64,000 nucleotides of DNA from an uncultured Syntrophaceae bacterium (GCA_964387765.1 CAYLXS010000001.1:437-64436), one strand, 5' to 3'; positions 50 through 57,807 are shown, numbered from the stretch's first letter. Notes: generated by a model not told the origin, from the letters alone. A program made the numbers and translations.

Positions 50-89
50 GGGTTTTGTTGGGTTTCGTGCCTTAACCCAACCTACAACT
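50..89. repeat. REP-like hairpin element, copy A (GGGTTTTGTTGGGTTTCGTGCCTTAACCCAACCTACAACT)
   Basis: An 8-bp stem (GTTGGGTT/AACCCAAC) surrounds a 9-nt loop. Near-identical copies lie at 29858-29897 and 57773-57807. This copy encodes the last codons (..CRLG) and the stop of the 72..3320 ORF. Confidence 0.8.
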
Positions 90-3000
90 TGCCAGGAATT
101 CGGATAAAATAACCTCTCTTTTAGCTGAAGGAAACCGTTGGCCCGGTCTTTTTGCATCAAGGATGTTATATGGAATGCTTTTTTTGAGAATTGCCAAAAC
201 TTTCAGGGGATTACTTTCCTTTTCGATTTTTTTCTTGATATTCTTTGTAGTATTTTTTGGAATCACCCCGTCTTCATATCCCCTTAAAACCAGCCTGATG
301 TATTCCTCGTCGTCATCGGTGAAGCCCTGATACTTTTTGAATTCTTTTGCCTTCAAACGTGTGATAACATAGCGTTCATTGGAAAGCCCGCCACGTCCGC
401 CTGATCCTTTCGGTTCAAAATTTTCGCCTGAAGTGATAAAATGGAACTGTTCTTTGTTGTCTTCCAGCATCGGATAGAACTGTTTTGGTATTTTCTCCCG
501 TTTTGTATCTTTGTCGCATTCCAGGATATCCGCAGCTTCGAAGAAGGTGCATTCTCGGGAACCATTGCCGCCTGACATAAAGAACTTTTTCAATTTGCCT
601 TTTCGGAAGAAGGTAAGCAACTGATCGTTTTCCATATCACATTGTCTGGATGATCGTGCTTTCTTCGGAAGGTTTTTAATCTCTTCAAAAAGCGAGGGTT
701 GATTATCACGAATATCACGAATAAACTTCAGGTATTTCAACTCGGATTGTCCTTCTTCATCATCACCCACATACGTCCTTTTGTCCGCAAGGCGTTGATA
801 CAGAGTGTCTCCGAATAATTCATGGGACGACACGACTTCTTCATCGGTAAGATATTTTGCATCCTCTCCAAGCGTGTCGTGGAAAGCCTGAATCTTGGAT
901 TTGATGTTATCTTCCAAGCCGATATGTCTGTCTGATTCATCCGTGGGGAAAAAGTTAAACACATAAATACTTGTGTGTTTAGTTCCTACACGATTCACAC
1001 GCCCAACCCTTTGAAGCACCTTTGTCGGATTCCAGGGCAGGTCATAATTTACTACGATATTTGAACGGTGCAGGTTGATGCCTTCCGCAAGGATGTCAGT
1101 GCTGATAAGAATCCGCAAATCGCCATTCTGGGTCTTGTGGGTGGGGTCGTAATTTTCTTTGATAATACGCCGCGCATCTATGACTGATTTTTTGCCTTCC
1201 GCGGTTTCTCCACCTTCGCTGGAGTAAAACAATACCTTGTTCGGGAACTGCCTGTTAAGATTATCATAAAGATAATCGCCTGTTTCTTTTGATTCTGTAA
1301 ATATTATAAGTTTCTTGTCTTTCAGCTCATTGTTTGTTTTCAGATTATCAATAAAGGTTTCTATTTTCGGATCCGAATCAACAACCGACCACAGATCGCG
1401 TATTGCTTTCAGTATCTTCAAGTCAGACTTGAGGTCTTCAATTAATTTTGGAGTAAATTCATCGGCGCTATATTTTTCAAGCTTTTCCTGCTCTATGAGC
1501 TGAAGTATTTTTTCTTCGTTGTCTTCATCCAGAAGATCGTAAACATCCACTTTTTTGCTGATAAGAATTGTCCCCTTATTGAACATATCAATGAAATTAA
1601 TATAGGATTCAACAAAGCGATCCAATGTATTGCGAAAGGCATAGAAGCTGCTTTCAAGACGTTTAACGAGAATGACCTTCATAAAGCCACCGACATTTCG
1701 CTGGCTTTGCTTTTCAAATTCAGGAAGTTCCCTTTTTAGGTAGAGTAGCGGTGTGTAACGTGCGTATTTAATTTTTTTCAGCAGTTCTATAGTTTGACCA
1801 AAAACAGCGCTTATATGTTCATCAAACTGGTAAATGAACCGCCTCGGATCTTCAACATCAGGGAAAAATAGGCCCTGTTCATCAATATCCTTATTGAAGT
1901 ATTTTGTAATTTCAGACCGCGTCCTCCGCACCATCGTATATTTCAGGATATTTTCCCTGATTTTTCCGGAACCTTCCTTAATGGCGCTGATGTATTCCGG
2001 GTCTGATTTTTTGATATTTTTGAGTCTGTGCATGAGACTCTTAAAGAATTTTTCTAGATTCGGCACTCCCGGAATTGTTGATTTCTTGGGGATCTGAAAG
2101 AGCTTCAATTGGCTTAAAATATCATCAAAGGTATTGTTCAAGGGTGTCGCGGAAACCAGAATGACTTTTTTGCCGTGGCAGACCTGATGAATCATTTCAA
2201 AGCCCTGGGTATATTCATTTCTGAAACGGTGCGCCTCATCAATGAAGATGTAATCATATCTTTCCGTTCCATCTTTGATGATCTGGTCAAGTTTACCGAG
2301 AGATTCCACCCTTGTTTTCTTGATTCCAAAGTCAAAGAATGTCTCTTCCCAGTAATCCTTGAGTACGGGAGGGCATATAACCAGCTTACCACCAGGCAGC
2401 TGTTGAGCCAGCATGGCGGATATAAATGTTTTTCCCAGACCGACAACATCGGCCAGAAACACTCCGTTGTAAGCATCCAGGATTTTCTTGGCGGAGACGA
2501 CTGCCTGTTTTTGATATTCAAGCTCCATAAAACCTTCAGGCAGGTCCAACTCAATCTCTTCATCAAGATTGATGTCTTCCTTCAGGTATTCGTAGAGCAT
2601 TTTCAGATATAGCTGATAGGGGATGATGGCGTCATTGAGCCAGGTTTTGTTCCGGATAGTTTCGACATATTCCTGTGAGATGTTTACGCCGTCTTTCCAC
2701 AGCGCTTCAAATTGCTTCAGGGCGAATTCAACATCAATCCTGCCTTTTAATTCGACGTTGAATTCCCTGTTTGCGATAAGGCCGCTTTCTGAAAAATTGC
2801 TGGAACCTGTGATTACCCTGCCAAAATCCAACTCCCCCTCTTTGAAACGGCTGACATAGACCTTGGCATGTATGTTTTCACTTGGATAGGCGCGCAGTTC
2901 CATCTTTTTCCCGTTGCCGCCATTGGCCATGTCTTGCTCTTTGTCGGCACAATCGGCAGTCAGAAATTCCAGGAATTTTCTGATGCCTATTTCAGTTTCG

Positions 3001-3320
3001 TAAGAGTCTTCCGATTCATCCATTTCGGATGCCGTCTGTTCGCTGAACATGCGTTTGGTTCTGCTGTGTGATTCAAAATCGAATTCGCCCCCGGATCGTG
3101 TCTCTTCAATAATCTCATAGGTCTTCTGATCTACATTGAGACCAACCAGGATTCTGATTTTGTCAATGGATTCAAAGGATTCGTATAACTGATAGAACCC
3201 GCTGGTGCGAAAATACCCGACCAGAACATCAAAGTATTGCACGTGCTCTAATGTCTTTTTGAACCTGTCAAGCAGTGCGTAACCCGGTTCATTTGTGAAA
3301 AAGGTTGTATCGGTAATCAT
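72..3320 (-). CDS. PLD-family nuclease domain fused to an SNF2-family helicase (1082 aa)
   Basis: The N-terminus has a single HKD-type motif (HAKVYVS...GSSNFSESG). SNF2/SF2 motifs are I LADVVGLGKT, II FIDEAHRFRN, III LVSATPLNN and VI QRVGRVNRVG. The last ~250 aa carry no motif I recognise. Confidence 0.85.
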   Translation of the reverse strand: MITDTTFFTNEPGYALLDRFKKTLEHVQYFDVLVGYFRTSGFYQLYESFESIDKIRILVGLNVDQKTYEIIEETRSGGEFDFESHSRTKRMFSEQTASEMDESEDSYETEIGIRKFLEFLTADCADKEQDMANGGNGKKMELRAYPSENIHAKVYVSRFKEGELDFGRVITGSSNFSESGLIANREFNVELKGRIDVEFALKQFEALWKDGVNISQEYVETIRNKTWLNDAIIPYQLYLKMLYEYLKEDINLDEEIELDLPEGFMELEYQKQAVVSAKKILDAYNGVFLADVVGLGKTFISAMLAQQLPGGKLVICPPVLKDYWEETFFDFGIKKTRVESLGKLDQIIKDGTERYDYIFIDEAHRFRNEYTQGFEMIHQVCHGKKVILVSATPLNNTFDDILSQLKLFQIPKKSTIPGVPNLEKFFKSLMHRLKNIKKSDPEYISAIKEGSGKIRENILKYTMVRRTRSEITKYFNKDIDEQGLFFPDVEDPRRFIYQFDEHISAVFGQTIELLKKIKYARYTPLLYLKRELPEFEKQSQRNVGGFMKVILVKRLESSFYAFRNTLDRFVESYINFIDMFNKGTILISKKVDVYDLLDEDNEEKILQLIEQEKLEKYSADEFTPKLIEDLKSDLKILKAIRDLWSVVDSDPKIETFIDNLKTNNELKDKKLIIFTESKETGDYLYDNLNRQFPNKVLFYSSEGGETAEGKKSVIDARRIIKENYDPTHKTQNGDLRILISTDILAEGINLHRSNIVVNYDLPWNPTKVLQRVGRVNRVGTKHTSIYVFNFFPTDESDRHIGLEDNIKSKIQAFHDTLGEDAKYLTDEEVVSSHELFGDTLYQRLADKRTYVGDDEEGQSELKYLKFIRDIRDNQPSLFEEIKNLPKKARSSRQCDMENDQLLTFFRKGKLKKFFMSGGNGSRECTFFEAADILECDKDTKREKIPKQFYPMLEDNKEQFHFITSGENFEPKGSGGRGGLSNERYVITRLKAKEFKKYQGFTDDDEEYIRLVLRGYEDGVIPKNTTKNIKKKIEKESNPLKVLAILKKSIPYNILDAKRPGQRFPSAKREVILSEFLASCRLG

Positions 3321-3337: not shown

Positions 3338-3408
3338 AAAACTCCCGTTTCTGTTTTGAAAGAAACGAGGCTTTTGTGATTATCTGCCATCTTTAGAACC
3401 TTTTTGAG
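3338..3408. repeat. Cassette-flanking box plus hairpin, copy 1 (also terminator-like)
   Basis: The 22-nt core TTTTGTGATTATCTGCCATCTT (3372-3393) is identical to 4589-4610. An adjacent 9-bp bulged hairpin (3344-3370) has T/A runs on both sides. It lies just 3' of the HEPN stop and 5' of the SNF2 start. Confidence 0.8.
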
Positions 3409-3429
3409 ATTGTTGAAATCGTAATATAT

Positions 3430-3873
3430 TTATACCAGCTCAGGGTGCTTTTCTTTGAGCCACTTCATGACATCTTTCCTTAATTCTCCGGCAAACTCAA
3501 TCAGTTCGTTTGCATCTTTTTCAGTAACACCCCCGACATAATCGTATTCAACGATATTTCTCTTGCTTCTGCATGTGTCGAGGTATTTGACATCTTCTTC
3601 CCTTTCTTTGCCAAGGATTACAGAAAGTGCCTTTATCGTCCTGTAATGCTGTAGAGTCCTTTCCGGCCTGAACCCTTCAGCATGCAGGGGTATTGTGCAA
3701 AGTTTTAACGCGGCATTATATGCGATACCGAATCGCCAGTCGGGCGAAATATCCCCGGCGGCATCTTCCAGATCTCTATTCACAATCTGGAGCAGATTAT
3801 CTATCTCTTCCCTGCTGGATTTATGCAGACGTAACCAACCGTATTCAACCCATTGCTCCAAGCTCATTTTCAT
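3430..3873 (-). CDS. HEPN-domain protein (toxin partner of the MNT gene)
   Basis: A small helical protein that overlaps the upstream MNT gene by 29 nt. The RSKRNIVEYDY region sits where the HEPN R-x4-6-H/Y signature lies. The MNT-HEPN pairing is the classic arrangement. Confidence 0.7.
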   Translation of the reverse strand: MKMSLEQWVEYGWLRLHKSSREEIDNLLQIVNRDLEDAAGDISPDWRFGIAYNAALKLCTIPLHAEGFRPERTLQHYRTIKALSVILGKEREEDVKYLDTCRSKRNIVEYDYVGGVTEKDANELIEFAGELRKDVMKWLKEKHPELV

Positions 3874-4432
3874 TTCCTATAACGAAAATCTTTGGCTTCT
3901 TAAGTATGCCTGTAATGAAATGATCGCCTTTTTCCCTGCGTTTCATAAATTCTTCATTATTCATGACATGGGGATTAATTTCTCTCCCGATTTTTCCAGA
4001 TAGTTCGGAAAGCAGAGCGGTTACTTCCCGCAATCCGAGGGTTCCGATCACCATAAGATCTATGTCGCTTTGTGTCTTTTCATCATGACGGGCAATCGAA
4101 CCAAAGACAAAAGCATATTCGATATCGGAAGACTTATTCAAGACTTCTTTTATAATATCAACCAGTCCGATGGTTTTTAGTACAATGTTTCGGATTTCGG
4201 GATAGAGCGGATGTTCTTTGTTAGCTTGATAATAAAGGCGGTTCCCGTCCCTGTTTTTCTTGATCAACTCCAGACGATGCAGTTTTTTCAACTCCTGCTG
4301 TACTGTGCCTGTTGTAAATCCTGACCGCCTCTCGATCTCGCGCATGTGCAGCGCATCGTCACGGGTACCGAAGAGTATCCGGAAGATTTCCGCTCTTATC
4401 TTCGATGAAAGTATTTCGGCGAGTATATTCAT
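3845..4432 (-). CDS. Winged-HTH plus minimal nucleotidyltransferase (MNT) antitoxin-type protein
   Basis: N-terminal wHTH (HMREIERRSGFTTGTVQQELKKL) and an NTase motif, FGSIARHDEKTQSDIDLMV (G-S...D-x-D). Confidence 0.85.
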   Translation of the reverse strand: MNILAEILSSKIRAEIFRILFGTRDDALHMREIERRSGFTTGTVQQELKKLHRLELIKKNRDGNRLYYQANKEHPLYPEIRNIVLKTIGLVDIIKEVLNKSSDIEYAFVFGSIARHDEKTQSDIDLMVIGTLGLREVTALLSELSGKIGREINPHVMNNEEFMKRREKGDHFITGILKKPKIFVIGNENELGAMG

Positions 4433-4446
4433 ACTGTATGTCTATA

Positions 4447-4462
4447 CCATACAATTGTATGG
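4447..4462. promoter_or_regulatory. Perfect 16-bp palindrome CCATACAATTGTATGG, candidate operator of the wHTH-MNT operon
   Basis: A perfect inverted repeat ending 14 nt upstream of the MNT ATG (4432). A -10-like TATAGA follows, and there is no Shine-Dalgarno sequence. Confidence 0.5.
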
Positions 4463-4557
4463 TTATTCCAAACAATTTTGAGACTGTGTCTATAGTGCCG
4501 AATCTCTGGTAACCACCTCATCATCTATCTGTCTGGCTTTACCTGGAGCGAACAAAT

Positions 4558-4626
4558 AAAACCCCGTCTCTGTTAAGAGCAACGGGGTTTTTGTGATTAT
4601 CTGCCATCTTCAAGGCCTTTTTTGTG
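4558..4626. repeat. Cassette-flanking box plus hairpin, copy 2 (bidirectional terminator-like)
   Basis: The same 22-nt core lies at 4589-4610. The CCCCGT..ACGGGG hairpin (4562-4587) is flanked by AAAA and TTTTT. It lies just 3' of the 4653..4898 ORF stop. Confidence 0.8.
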
Positions 4627-4652
4627 TTTAAAAAGAAAAGATCATTTGTTGT

Positions 4653-4898
4653 TTAATGTATGGCACCCTTGTTTTTTGTTAAGACTTTTGCATATTCAAC
4701 AAAAATCCGTGGAATGTCAAGGGAAACATGGAGCATTAGAGGTTTCAGAAGCTCTTCCATAGTGACACCGATGGATAGCCCGCCGGGATTCCGGAAGGGG
4801 TGAGAAATGAGTTCGCTATTCAGTTCAAGGATAAAGGTTTGACGCTGTTTCCTCATTGAGATATAGATACCGATTTCAGAACAAATCCATGAGAACAC
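4653..4898 (-). CDS. Hypothetical small protein (GTG start; an internal ATG would give 67 aa)
   Basis: ORF only, with no recognisable motif. It is followed by the same box/hairpin element as the HEPN gene. Confidence 0.3.
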   Translation of the reverse strand: MFSWICSEIGIYISMRKQRQTFILELNSELISHPFRNPGGLSIGVTMEELLKPLMLHVSLDIPRIFVEYAKVLTKNKGAIH

Positions 4899-4979: not shown

Positions 4980-6386
4980 ATGAAAACACCTGCAAGAGAA
5001 GTGATTAACAGTAATGTATTGCCGGGAAAGAGTATCATCATTTCCGTTATGATGACTTCTTTTTTTACGACATTTATCGGCAGTTCAACAAATCTGGCAT
5101 TACCGCTAATCGGGAAGGAATTCGCGGGGAGCGCCCTTGTCCTGAGCTGGATTGTAACCGGTTATATCCTGGCATCAGCCGTATTCCTGTTGCCCATGGG
5201 AAGAATTGCCGATATTGTTGGGAGAAAAAAGATCTTTCTTCTGGGGACGACAGGTTTTACACTTTTCACGTTTCTGTGCGCGGTTTCGTGGTCGAATGCT
5301 TCGCTCATCCTTTTCCGGGTATTGCAGGGAATAACAGCTTCCATGATATACGCGACGGGAATGGCAATAATATCTTCCGCCTATCCGGCCGGGCAAAGGG
5401 GGAAGGCGATGGGGCTGGCCGTGACGGCAACGTATACCGGCCTTTCACTCGGGCCTGCTCTAGGAGGCTTTATATGCCAGCATCTGGGTTGGAGGAGTAT
5501 TTTTTACTTTACCGCTTTAGTCGGTTTGGCCTCTGTTGTGTTCATTATAACCCGCGTGCGGGATAAATGGCCCGGTCGGCAGGGAGAAAAATTCGATCTC
5601 GCCGGAAGTATGCTGTATATGTTCGGGCTTGCCGCATTTTTGTATGGCATGTCATCAATGTACAGTACACCACTGGCAAAGTACATCTTTATAGCCGGTG
5701 TGATTCTCATGACGGGTTTTATCCTTCTCGAATCAAGGCTCCCCTTCCCTCTCATAAATCTGCGATTGTTTTCCCATAACATTGTCTTTGCTTTTTCCAA
5801 CCTCGCTGCCATGATCAATTACAGCGCGACATTTGCTATCGGGTTTCTCCTTTCTCTTTATCTCCAGGTAATCCGGGGATACAGTCCTCAGACAGCCGGT
5901 TTTGTCCTTCTCGCGCAACCTGTTATCATGGCCCTGTTTTCATCATTCGCCGGTTCGCTTTCAGATAGAATCGAACCTCGTATCGTTGCTTCATGTGGAA
6001 TGGGGCTTAACGCGCTGGGTCTTTTTCTTTTTGCGCTTCTCGGCGCCGCTACACCTGTCTGGATGGTAGCACTGAATCTGGCACTGATCGGTCTCGGTTT
6101 TGCTCTGTTTTCCTCACCCAATACCAACGCGATCATGGGGTCTGTAGATGAACAATTCTATGGGGTTGCCGCGTCAACGGTTTCAACCATGCGTATGATC
6201 GGAATGGCTACGAGCATGACTATTGTGACTCTGCTGATTGCGCTGTTTGTCGGTGACACGGAACTCCATCAAACGGATCCCGTCCTTTTCCTGACCAGCT
6301 TCAGAATCGCCTTTGCAGTCTTTGGTATTCTTTGCGCCGGCGGTGTCTTTGCCTCTCTCGCCAGGGGAAATGTGCGGTCTTCGTGA
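4980..6386 (+). CDS. MFS transporter, DHA2 (14-TM drug:H+ antiporter)-like
   Basis: 468 aa with about 14 hydrophobic segments and an MFS motif-A-like GRIADIVGRKKIFLLG. Confidence 0.85.
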   Translation: MKTPAREVINSNVLPGKSIIISVMMTSFFTTFIGSSTNLALPLIGKEFAGSALVLSWIVTGYILASAVFLLPMGRIADIVGRKKIFLLGTTGFTLFTFLCAVSWSNASLILFRVLQGITASMIYATGMAIISSAYPAGQRGKAMGLAVTATYTGLSLGPALGGFICQHLGWRSIFYFTALVGLASVVFIITRVRDKWPGRQGEKFDLAGSMLYMFGLAAFLYGMSSMYSTPLAKYIFIAGVILMTGFILLESRLPFPLINLRLFSHNIVFAFSNLAAMINYSATFAIGFLLSLYLQVIRGYSPQTAGFVLLAQPVIMALFSSFAGSLSDRIEPRIVASCGMGLNALGLFLFALLGAATPVWMVALNLALIGLGFALFSSPNTNAIMGSVDEQFYGVAASTVSTMRMIGMATSMTIVTLLIALFVGDTELHQTDPVLFLTSFRIAFAVFGILCAGGVFASLARGNVRSS

Positions 6387-14682: not shown

Positions 14683-14715
14683 AAAATATTGGGGTGAGTG
14701 ACCGGATTTGAACCG
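14683..14715. repeat. Direct repeat (att-like): partial copy of the tRNA-His 3' end
   Basis: The 33-nt sequence AAAATATTGGGGTGAGTGACCGGATTTGAACCG is identical to 20114-20146. It covers 26 nt of the tRNA-His 3' half plus 7 nt beyond the CCA. Confidence 0.9.
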
Positions 14716-20113: not shown

Positions 20114-20146
20114 AAAATATTGGGGTGAGTGACCGGATTTGAACCG
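20114..20146. repeat. Direct repeat (att-like) within and flanking the intact tRNA-His
   Basis: Identical 33-mer to 14683-14715. Confidence 0.9.
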
Positions 20147-20198
20147 GCGACCTCCTGGGCCACAACCAGGCACTCTAACCAACTGAGCTACACCCACC
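20121..20198 (-). tRNA. tRNA-His (GTG)
   Basis: The hand-folded cloverleaf has G-1, acceptor GTGGGTG/CACTCAC, anticodon loop TTGTGGC, T-loop TTCAAAT, and an encoded CCA. Confidence 0.9.
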
Positions 20199-29849: not shown

Positions 29850-29857
29850 AATTCTGA

Positions 29858-29897
29858 GGGTTTTGTCGGGTTTCGTACCTCAACCCAACCTACAACT
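29858..29897. repeat. REP-like hairpin element, copy B
   Basis: GGGTTTTGTCGGGTTTCGTACCTCAACCCAACCTACAACT, with one stem mismatch. It fills the nadC-birA spacer and supplies the last two nadC codons and the TAG stop. Confidence 0.8.
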
Positions 29898-30753
29898 CTG
29901 ATCCCTGATCCATAAACACAAGTGATATGTCAGCGGCGGGAGCGGAATGGGTGAGAGCTCCGACGGATATAAAATCCACTCCGGTCCCCGCAATCTCCCT
30001 CACATTCGACAGGGTGACATTCCCTGAGGCCTCAACCATAGCCTTTCCATTAATAAGAGAAACCGCCTTGTTCATTTCACCTGCCCCCATATTATCCAGC
30101 ATGATTATATCGACTCTCGAGGCAAGGGCCTCTTCAACTTCCTTAAGGTTTTTAACCTCCACTTCGATCTTTACGGTGGGTGGAATATTTCCAATCACTT
30201 TTCTTACCGCATTCGAAATACCCCCTGCAGCGTTTATGTGATTATCTTTGATCATCACACCGTCATACAGACCAAATCTGTGATTAAATCCTCCACCTGT
30301 TTTTACCGCGTATTTCTCAAGGCTTCTCAGGTTTGGCGTTGTCTTTCTCGTATCCAGTATTTTGACTCCAGTGCCTCTTACTTCTTCAACATATTTGCGC
30401 GTCATCGTGGCAATCCCGCACATCCTCTGAAACAAATTCAACGCGACGCGTTCCGCAAGGAGAATGCCTTTCAGTCTGCCCGATATACAGGCAAGGATTT
30501 CTCCTCTTCCAGCCGGTTGGCCGTCGCAGAAATACGCCTCAAAGTTCAGGGATGAATCCATGACATGGAATACCTTTTTAAAAACATTGATACCCGCGAC
30601 AATGCTTTCGCCCTTCGAAATTACCTGCGCAACACCGGTTTCATCACCTGTAAGAACAGCTGACGTGGTAAGGTCACCCGATCCCATATCTTCATCGAGC
30701 GCTGTCCGGATAAATTCATTCAACCTGATATCTGAAATCATGATAATCCTCAC
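29890..30753 (-). CDS. nadC: Nicotinate-nucleotide pyrophosphorylase (carboxylating)
   Basis: QPRTase length and sequence pattern (..KDNHI.., ..SGNV..). Confidence 0.9.
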   Translation of the reverse strand: MRIIMISDIRLNEFIRTALDEDMGSGDLTTSAVLTGDETGVAQVISKGESIVAGINVFKKVFHVMDSSLNFEAYFCDGQPAGRGEILACISGRLKGILLAERVALNLFQRMCGIATMTRKYVEEVRGTGVKILDTRKTTPNLRSLEKYAVKTGGGFNHRFGLYDGVMIKDNHINAAGGISNAVRKVIGNIPPTVKIEVEVKNLKEVEEALASRVDIIMLDNMGAGEMNKAVSLINGKAMVEASGNVTLSNVREIAGTGVDFISVGALTHSAPAADISLVFMDQGSEL

Positions 30754-57759: not shown

Positions 57760-57772
57760 GGGCTGAAGATTC

Positions 57773-57807
57773 TTGTTGGGTTTCGTGCCTCAACCCAACC
57801 TACATCT
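57773..57807. repeat. REP-like hairpin element, copy C
   Basis: TTGTTGGGTTTCGTGCCTCAACCCAACCTACATCT, between the convergent antiporter and nnr genes. Confidence 0.8.

Follow-up and report, generated by a model that had tools for sequence, protein, structure and literature searches.

A conserved non-coding unit with a predicted promoter, leader and terminator lies ahead of varied defence operons in uncultured Syntrophales-like bacteria

Results

Genes and elements at the locus

The stretch of DNA analysed here, 64,000 nt from an uncultured Syntrophaceae bacterium (GCA_964387765.1, CAYLXS010000001.1:437-64436; hereafter the window), carries near its left end two copies of a 22-nt sequence (the box), each beside a hairpin, which flank a gene pair encoding a winged helix-turn-helix (wHTH)-MNT nucleotidyltransferase and a HEPN-fold partner, upstream of the gene for an HKD-SNF2 helicase-nuclease. 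One of the two copies lies at the end of a complete non-coding unit that recurs in related genomes. The initial annotation, made by a model from the sequence, had described the layout as an 81-aa open reading frame (ORF), box, MNT-HEPN, box and PLD-SNF2; this order is correct, though the minus strand carries all four ORFs and the 81-aa ORF is probably not a gene. The strand on which it had read the elements was likewise wrong, as they read as terminators on the minus strand that carries all the genes, and because the four flanking ORFs share this orientation the box precedes the hairpin in the transcribed sense. Relatives were compared as numbered loci (L001 onwards), 58 of which entered the profile searches. 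The features of the locus are:

72-3320, minus strand: HKD(PLD)-SNF2 helicase-nuclease (domain search, PADLOC)
3339-3405, minus strand: orphan 3' fragment of the unit, about 70 nt, consisting of AAAAAGG, box copy 1 (3372-3393) and hairpin H1 (3341-3371) (nhmmer E = 6e-17)
3342-4553, minus strand: 1,212-nt block missing from L027, comprising a 58-nt spacer, the presumed operator, MNT, HEPN, box copy 1 and H1
3430-3873, minus strand: HEPN-fold partner, 147 aa (PADLOC PDC-M05B, E = 9e-44)
3845-4432, minus strand: wHTH-MNT nucleotidyltransferase, 195 aa (Pfam Polbeta/NTP_transf_2 and a MarR-type HTH; PADLOC PDC-M05A, E = 1e-62)
4447-4462, minus strand: perfect palindrome CCATACAATTGTATGG upstream of MNT (seen in the sequence)
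4554-4588, minus strand: predicted terminator hairpin H2 (4561-4588) with its U-run (4554-4560) (scan and folding)
4558-4727, minus strand: complete non-coding unit (predicted promoter, leader, P1, box and terminator), about 190 bp (cross-genome homology)
4589-4605, minus strand: predicted single-stranded linker between P1 and the terminator, 17 nt, the core of the 22-mer (RNAalifold)
4589-4610, minus strand: box copy 2, AAGATGGCAGATAATCACAAAA on the minus strand
4604-4645, minus strand: predicted hairpin P1, AUGAUCUUUUCUU paired with AAAGG..CUGAAGAU (RNAalifold on eight units)
4655-4682, minus strand: second promoter-like site, TTAACA-16-TACATT, inside the leader (consensus scan)
4692-4720, minus strand: putative sigma-70-like promoter P, TTGACA (4715-4720), 17 nt, GAATAT (4692-4697)

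The box and its hairpins

The 22-mer, TTTTGTGATTATCTGCCATCTT on the plus strand, occurs exactly twice in the window (3372-3393 and 4589-4610), where no occurrence is expected, and the exact repeat reported by the initial annotation therefore stands; no further match with up to three mismatches was found elsewhere in the window or in 100 shuffles. The repeat between the two copies extends over 56 nt at 80% identity (3350-3405 versus 4567-4622), and the similarity overall covers about 56-70 nt. Read on the minus strand, each element consists of AAAAAGG or an A-rich stretch, the box, a GC-rich hairpin and a U-run, which is, as judged from sequence, the form of an intrinsic terminator. Like Rho-independent (intrinsic, bidirectional) terminators, these elements place a GC-rich stem-loop between an A-run and a U-run, about 24 nt past the upstream stop codon in the case of box 1 after HEPN, but they differ from them in that conservation across genera extends to about 35 nt ahead of the stem, and in forming part of a larger promoter-leader unit.

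Both hairpins fold, as had been claimed (H1 at -10.6 kcal/mol, H2 at -14.0 kcal/mol), and both were detected by a terminator scan, with minus-strand U-runs of UUUU(C) after H1 and UUUUAUUU after H2, and would probably function as intrinsic terminators. The H2 hairpin is identical in L026 and differs by one base in L027, while H1 is the outlier, with a diverged, re-registered and weaker stem. The covariation that had been proposed for the hairpins was not recovered, as none of the ten stem pairs is altered on both sides over 17 copies.

A 26-nt stretch at 30232-30257 is 81% similar to the box; it lacks an adjacent hairpin and was missed by the nhmmer profile search, and this 'third copy' is taken as a chance match. 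Resemblance of the box to a Fur box or a sigma-54 site was also considered, and the matches were poor on inspection.

A conserved promoter-leader-terminator unit

Box copy 2 sits in the last 70 nt, that is at the 3' end, of the unit at 4558-4727, which has homologs at 74-98% in L001, L003, L005, L006, L013, L019, L027, L028, L039, L046 and L049. TTGACA-17-nAnnAT, leader, P1 and terminator can be aligned across 11 distinct loci, and the order in the alignments is GTTTCCC-TTGACA, 17 nt, GAATAT, an A-rich leader of about 130 nt, P1, box and terminator. The TTGACA hexamer is invariant in the 11 full units and is replaced by TTGACG in L041.

The predicted P1 hairpin covers the Shine-Dalgarno (SD)-like AAAGG and the AUG that opens the box, and RNAalifold leaves GGCAGAUAAUCACAAAA single-stranded between P1 and the terminator. 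Two P1 pairs show two-sided changes, one of which (CG/UA/AU) accounts for four such changes, and the covariation score of P1 was matched by one of 500 shuffles, on a sample of only eight related sequences. Four conserved G-U pairs, three in P1 and one in the terminator, are workable only in minus-strand RNA. No Rfam 15 family matched the unit above its gathering threshold (best scores of 18-22 bits against thresholds of 37-54, E above 1). It is a previously undescribed non-coding unit of an ordinary kind, but the regularity with which it accompanies interchangeable defence operons is unusual.

A leader variant was seen in L001, L028 and L039, in which the P1 region is swapped for a different hairpin, CACTCCGGTGAAAACCGGAGT. 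A leader micro-ORF, MPYIKQQMIFSF, is present in six of eight units; it was rejected because, on inspection, it lacks a usable SD sequence and is broken in L019 and L049. The 81-aa ORF of the initial annotation (4653-4898, minus strand), where JGI calls a 67-aa gene, is likely a mis-call, since it overlaps the conserved promoter and leader, cross-genome homology around it ends at 4727, and protein-family searches returned no family match.

Copy number and conservation among relatives

An exact 20-mer scan of species-representative genomes returned five true homologs with one exact copy each, all metagenome-assembled genomes (MAGs) classified as Syntrophobacterales, Syntrophaceae or 'Deltaproteobacteria', together with two chance matches, and an exact 18-mer scan of metagenomes added ten further loci. 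The element recurs in relatives and is not confined to the window. The unit is present once in each of about 20 related MAG and metagenome contigs, and the window holds two box copies but one promoter copy in 64 kb; nhmmer profiles run over the window and the 58 loci found no further copies.

The seeming perfection of the box in relatives is an ascertainment bias, because these relatives were found by exact 18- and 20-mers. In loci reached independently of the box, via contigs encoding MNT and SNF2 homologs, the box carries two mismatches in L039, five in L040, two in L046 and about six in L049, and with the bias taken out the box does not stand out in conservation. Identity is 0.82-0.95 for the box versus 0.78-0.82 for the remainder of the unit, and 50-68 of the 149 sliding 22-nt windows of the unit, about a third, are at least as conserved as the box.

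The proposal of an element family survives as far as recurrence in relatives is concerned and fails as a multi-copy family, with two copies per 64 kb here and one exact copy in each of five genomes. A dispersed or repetitive extragenic palindromic (REP) family was rejected on the same counts. A miniature inverted-repeat transposable element (MITE) or insertion sequence (IS) end, the other alternative raised initially, was rejected on the few copies and on a junction that shows a 1-nt overlap but no target duplication. The unit had no matches in plasmids, phages or viral contigs; the 18-mer box core does match one viral contig (L033), where neither the hairpin nor the rest of the unit surrounds it, and this was set aside as chance.

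Separately, a 41-nt hairpin repeat with core GTTGGGTTTCGTGCCTYAACCCAACCTAC occurs three times in the window in the same orientation (49-89, 29857-29897 and 57767-57807) and also in L014 and L020, one copy overlapping the final codons of HKD-SNF2. This REP-like repeat is likelier than the box to represent a dispersed family.

Genes downstream and upstream of the unit

In every locus the gene that follows the U-run is co-oriented and begins 18-90 nt beyond it (187 nt in L039), and in most contexts the gap to the downstream start codon is 18-54 nt. The downstream genes identified by PADLOC are HKD-SNF2 with a type IIG restriction-modification (RM) enzyme, DrmD, Cas3c and a type I methyltransferase, and in L039, which was outside the PADLOC scan, the gene is a PLD-helicase by similarity to the L026/L027 helicase. 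A ribosome-binding site (RBS), TTTTTTCATGnCAGGAAG, after the U-run is common to loci with SNF2 and with Cas3c. On the upstream side the neighbours differ between loci, co-oriented toxin-antitoxin (TA) genes such as Fic, DUF3024, VapBC-like, HicAB and MNT being frequent.

The same promoter-leader also stands ahead of DUF3024 (L003 and L041) and of a VapBC-like pair (L040). Since it precedes differing cargo, the island is a mosaic in which common 5' and 3' modules are used repeatedly, and the initial suggestion that its units share the same ends is upheld. The initial notion of a cassette array is not, with two copies in 64 kb, one per related contig and no integrase.

The promoter-leader was also seen repeated within loci, at 4175-4230 and 5863-5915 in L040, 4794-4849 and 5355-5406 in L041, and 5864-5918 and 8129-8183 in L039, where the repeats precede different TA cargo (VapBC-like, DUF3024 and MNT). 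The stop codon of Fic, TGA, falls within the -35 hexamer in L003 and L041.

In the window, HKD-SNF2 is the first gene of a defence operon running past its left end, with a type IIG RM enzyme and PD-Lambda-5 A/B. The continuation was seen in L034 (14424-20231), where the next genes after HKD-SNF2 encode a type IIG RM enzyme of 1187 aa and the PD-Lambda-5 A/B pair. Related loci carry NYN, PIN/DUF2281, ThsB-TIR, SIR2 or nSTAND genes at the place of type IIG/PD-Lambda-5, which indicates that the island is very fluid.

Origin of the two-box state

Rightwards of 4550, two near relatives, L026 and L027, match the window at 97.7% identity, against only 81-85% on the left. Each carries one box, followed by the same H2 and then immediately by the SNF2 leader, and retains just a 190-nt SNF2 remnant followed by a different helicase. 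L027 lacks MNT-HEPN, so that the comparison of relatives for presence or absence of this pair, which had been suggested at the outset, gives a near-identical locus with a single box. The junction between these loci and the window lies in the T-run after H2, outside the 22-mer, with a 1-nt overlap and no target duplication.

The converse arrangement is found in L040, which aligns collinearly with window 4495-3229 (87% identity) and in which the promoter-leader is joined directly to MNT-HEPN-box-hairpin-SNF2, again with a single box; this box, at the position orthologous to window box 1, is the one with five mismatches. The flank of box 1 is closest to L040 (0.84) and that of box 2 to L026/L027 (1.00). 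Because the two flanks group with different relatives, the two copies are best read from their sequences as old paralogs united by block recombination, not as a recent duplication, in agreement with the earlier statement that no fresh duplication is involved. Five independent metagenome contigs show the two-box layout as well. A junction of window 4655 to 4495 is common to L039 and L040 and might reflect the loss of 159 nt from an ancestor with two boxes; in both loci the MNT operator follows directly after the TTAACA-16-TACATT site.

Core defence hotspots and defence islands are places where strains carry different defence systems beside a fixed landmark (PMC10250203, PMC10121019); in Neisseria, minimal mobile elements are swapped through homologous recombination within conserved flanking sequence (PMC3787668). 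The locus resembles the hotspots in having different systems beside a fixed landmark and a mosaic identity break there (97.7% versus 81-85%). It differs from them in that the landmark is a non-coding unit of about 190 bp and not a core gene, and in that the upstream genes vary too.

The MNT-HEPN gene pair and other features of the island

PADLOC files MNT and its partner as the candidate system PDC-M05, and the match of MNT to MntA is weak (29.6 bits against a cut-off of 60). The partner had no sequence match in Pfam, NCBIfam or the PDB, and its AF2 model (pLDDT 93.9) has HEPN domains as best PDB folds (3o10, 1wol and 5yep_C; TM 0.6-0.7, E about 0.09). At the Rx4-6H position it reads R-N-I-V-E-Y, with Tyr in place of the catalytic His, invariant in 39 homologs, and it may not be a canonical HEPN RNase. 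The pair is a possible member of the type VII TA systems (MntA/HepT-like), which combine a nucleotidyltransferase antitoxin with a HEPN-fold partner carrying an Rx4-6H RNase motif: the nucleotidyltransferase domain is present and structure search gives the partner a HEPN fold, but the His of the motif is replaced. The palindrome at 4447-4462, of which near-identical versions occur in L040 and L041, is presumed to be the autoregulatory operator of the wHTH-MNT protein.

Elsewhere in the window, a perfect 33-nt direct repeat lies at 14683-14715 and 20114-20146, the second copy spanning the 3' terminus of a minus-strand tRNA-His (20121-20197). The intervening 5.4 kb have lower GC, carry PAS-HD-GYP and MASE3-PAS-GGDEF genes and no integrase, and look like an integrase-less island remnant at tRNA-His.

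Discussion

The anatomy of the unit, its conservation, its genomic contexts and its junctions are direct observations on the compared loci, and the reading we favour, as a probable one, is that the unit serves as the promoter and attenuating leader of the defence operon that follows, box 1 being an orphan 3' fragment, within a mosaic TA and defence island. The usual gap between the U-run and the next start codon is too short for a separate promoter, so that the unit itself would supply promoter, leader and attenuating terminator. Its sigma-70-type promoter would start a transcript into the A-rich leader, most transcripts would end at the terminator hairpin, and read-through would give low-level expression of the defence operon, with the box as the terminator-proximal single-stranded segment of the leader RNA. 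The orphan copy, which begins 24 nt past the HEPN stop codon and ends 18 nt ahead of the HKD-SNF2 start, would derive from a homologous module, terminate the MNT-HEPN operon and precede HKD-SNF2, and the two boxes would have come together by block recombination in the mosaic island and not by cassette integration at the box. Of the roles first suggested for the element, those of a shared terminator and of a small-RNA 3' module come close to this reading.

Leader attenuators are familiar from the leader-peptide attenuator of pyrBI and from terminator-containing riboswitch leaders. The unit resembles these in having a promoter, an untranslated leader and a terminator just upstream of an ORF, no intervening promoter, and possibly a short ORF crossing the terminator. 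It differs from them in that no antiterminator, ligand pocket or conserved leader peptide was found and in that the same leader stands ahead of unrelated defence operons.

Several observations weigh against the favoured reading. No alternative antiterminator structure was found in the unit, so that any regulation of the read-through is conjectural; the activity of the promoter, the termination and the read-through are themselves predicted from sequence. All 22 nt of window box 1 are kept beside a hairpin that differs at about 30% of positions, and this is unexplained by plain terminator function. HKD-SNF2 homologs at 82% identity or less (L048 and L052-58) lack the unit, which is therefore not owned by the SNF2 system, and SNF2 was rejected as its owner; the unit is lineage-specific, belonging to the host lineage or island, and is not needed by the defence system. 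A further point is that much of the anatomy would also suit a stand-alone gene of about 90-130 nt for a trans-acting small RNA, with the box as seed or protein-binding region beside the terminator and the varied downstream defence genes merely reflecting an insertion hotspot beside it. This is an unlikely alternative but one with several features in its favour, as the unit has a conserved promoter and a terminator of its own, with a conserved unpaired segment separating its two hairpins, its 5' part is rich in A-R-N triplets, and the 'empty' units of different genomes share internal sequence and so are not independent deletion scars. Hfq-type small RNAs end in 3' modules of hairpin, single-stranded A/U-rich stretch, terminator hairpin and U-tail, under their own promoter. 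The unit shares that layout and departs from it in being followed immediately by a co-oriented ORF with a shared RBS. The RBS-containing stretch after the U-run belongs to the conserved block, the gaps of 18-54 nt in most contexts leave no room for a separate promoter, and the upstream neighbours vary too, which leaves the unit without a core-gene anchor; all three speak against a stand-alone small-RNA gene.

The conserved AAAGG and AUG allow two more elaborate versions of a leader. In the broader one, which we regard as quite unlikely, the unit would be a riboregulatory 'defence leader', a conserved switch gating any promoterless defence operon placed behind it (HKD-SNF2/RM, DISARM DrmD, type I-C Cas3 or type I RM), in which the SD sequence and AUG would be masked by P1, a short ORF would cross the terminator, a ribosome or factor acting at the box would set read-through, and the conserved ends would serve as homology handles for exchanging TA and defence cargo. 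The narrower one, a translation-coupled attenuator, is very unlikely: translation would begin at the AUG of the box, with AAAGG as its SD sequence, and proceed along a short upstream ORF (MADNHK...) across the terminator, the translating ribosome would block the hairpin and open the defence operon, and P1 masking of the SD sequence and AUG would be the off state. It accords with P1 pairing with precisely the SD-like and AUG segments, with AAAGG (AAAGA in L009) and ATGGCAG being invariant in 17 of 17 copies, diverged ones included, with a frame that no stop codon interrupts up to the end of the hairpin in 16 of 17 copies, although indels shift it into several registers, and with two synonymous substitutions in independently found copies (AAT>AAC in L046, CAC>CAT in L039). 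However, frame and peptide are not conserved past codon 7 and lengths range over 12-43 codons, third codon positions are no less conserved than others, and L040 and L049 carry non-synonymous changes. The stop codon abuts the next start in only three lineages, with SNF2-type leaders, which equals the 1-in-3 chance expectation, and translational coupling of the box ORF to SNF2 was rejected on this ground. A site-specific recombination site (attC-like, att or dif-like) formed by box and hairpin, where a recombinase acting in trans would insert or excise promoterless or TA cassettes, is highly improbable, even though the same 5' and 3' modules bound varied cargo (nothing, DUF3024, MNT-HEPN or VapBC-like), L027 shows precise presence or absence with a junction right after the hairpin, and the orphan copies in the window and L007 share their 5' limit. 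The initial annotation had allowed such a role, and the junction outside the 22-mer, without target duplication, contradicts it, as does the empty-site hairpin, which is H2 and not H1, contrary to a crossover in the core. The attC motifs RYYYAAC/GTTRRRY are absent on both strands of all 17 copies, as is the XerD-arm pattern TTATGTNAANT from all 17; GCAGATAAT loosely resembles a XerC arm by inspection, and a 28-bp Xer/dif site (XerC arm, 6-bp spacer, XerD arm) was rejected on the missing XerD arm. No integrase or recombinase was found among the called genes within 10 kb or in the 1,212-nt block, each genome has only one or two copies, and the two in the window fall in different sub-lineages. 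An attL/attR pair of an integrative element at an RNA gene 3' end fails on the same empty-site junction outside the core and the lack of a linked recombinase. Integron cassette arrays are comparable in that differing cargo units end in a similar structured element and that TA cargo is typical of chromosomal arrays; they differ in their R'/R'' core sites, integrase and copy number, and here the junction is off the core and a promoter is shared. Scarcely credible is a plus-strand antisense promoter with an extended -10 (TGTGATTAT) and a -35 (TTGAAA or TTAAGA) in the hairpin loop, which would produce transcripts antisense to either the leader or HEPN-MNT. A scan gives TTGAAA-16-GATTAT with an upstream TG at 3356-3383 and the corresponding bases are conserved, but the region holds 11 promoter-like matches against 12.5 in shuffles, the -35 is poor in most copies, and the G-U pairs argue for a structure selected on the minus strand.

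Taken as the promoter and attenuating leader of the operon behind it, the unit recasts a supposed cassette site as a concrete anatomy that marks the starts of defence operons in uncultured Syntrophales-like bacteria. Were it only a terminator, the finding would be an ordinary one. The unit is a candidate for the common transcriptional control of different defence systems; should the leader have a regulatory role, it would be the RNA equivalent of those protein regulators that precede defence systems of many kinds.

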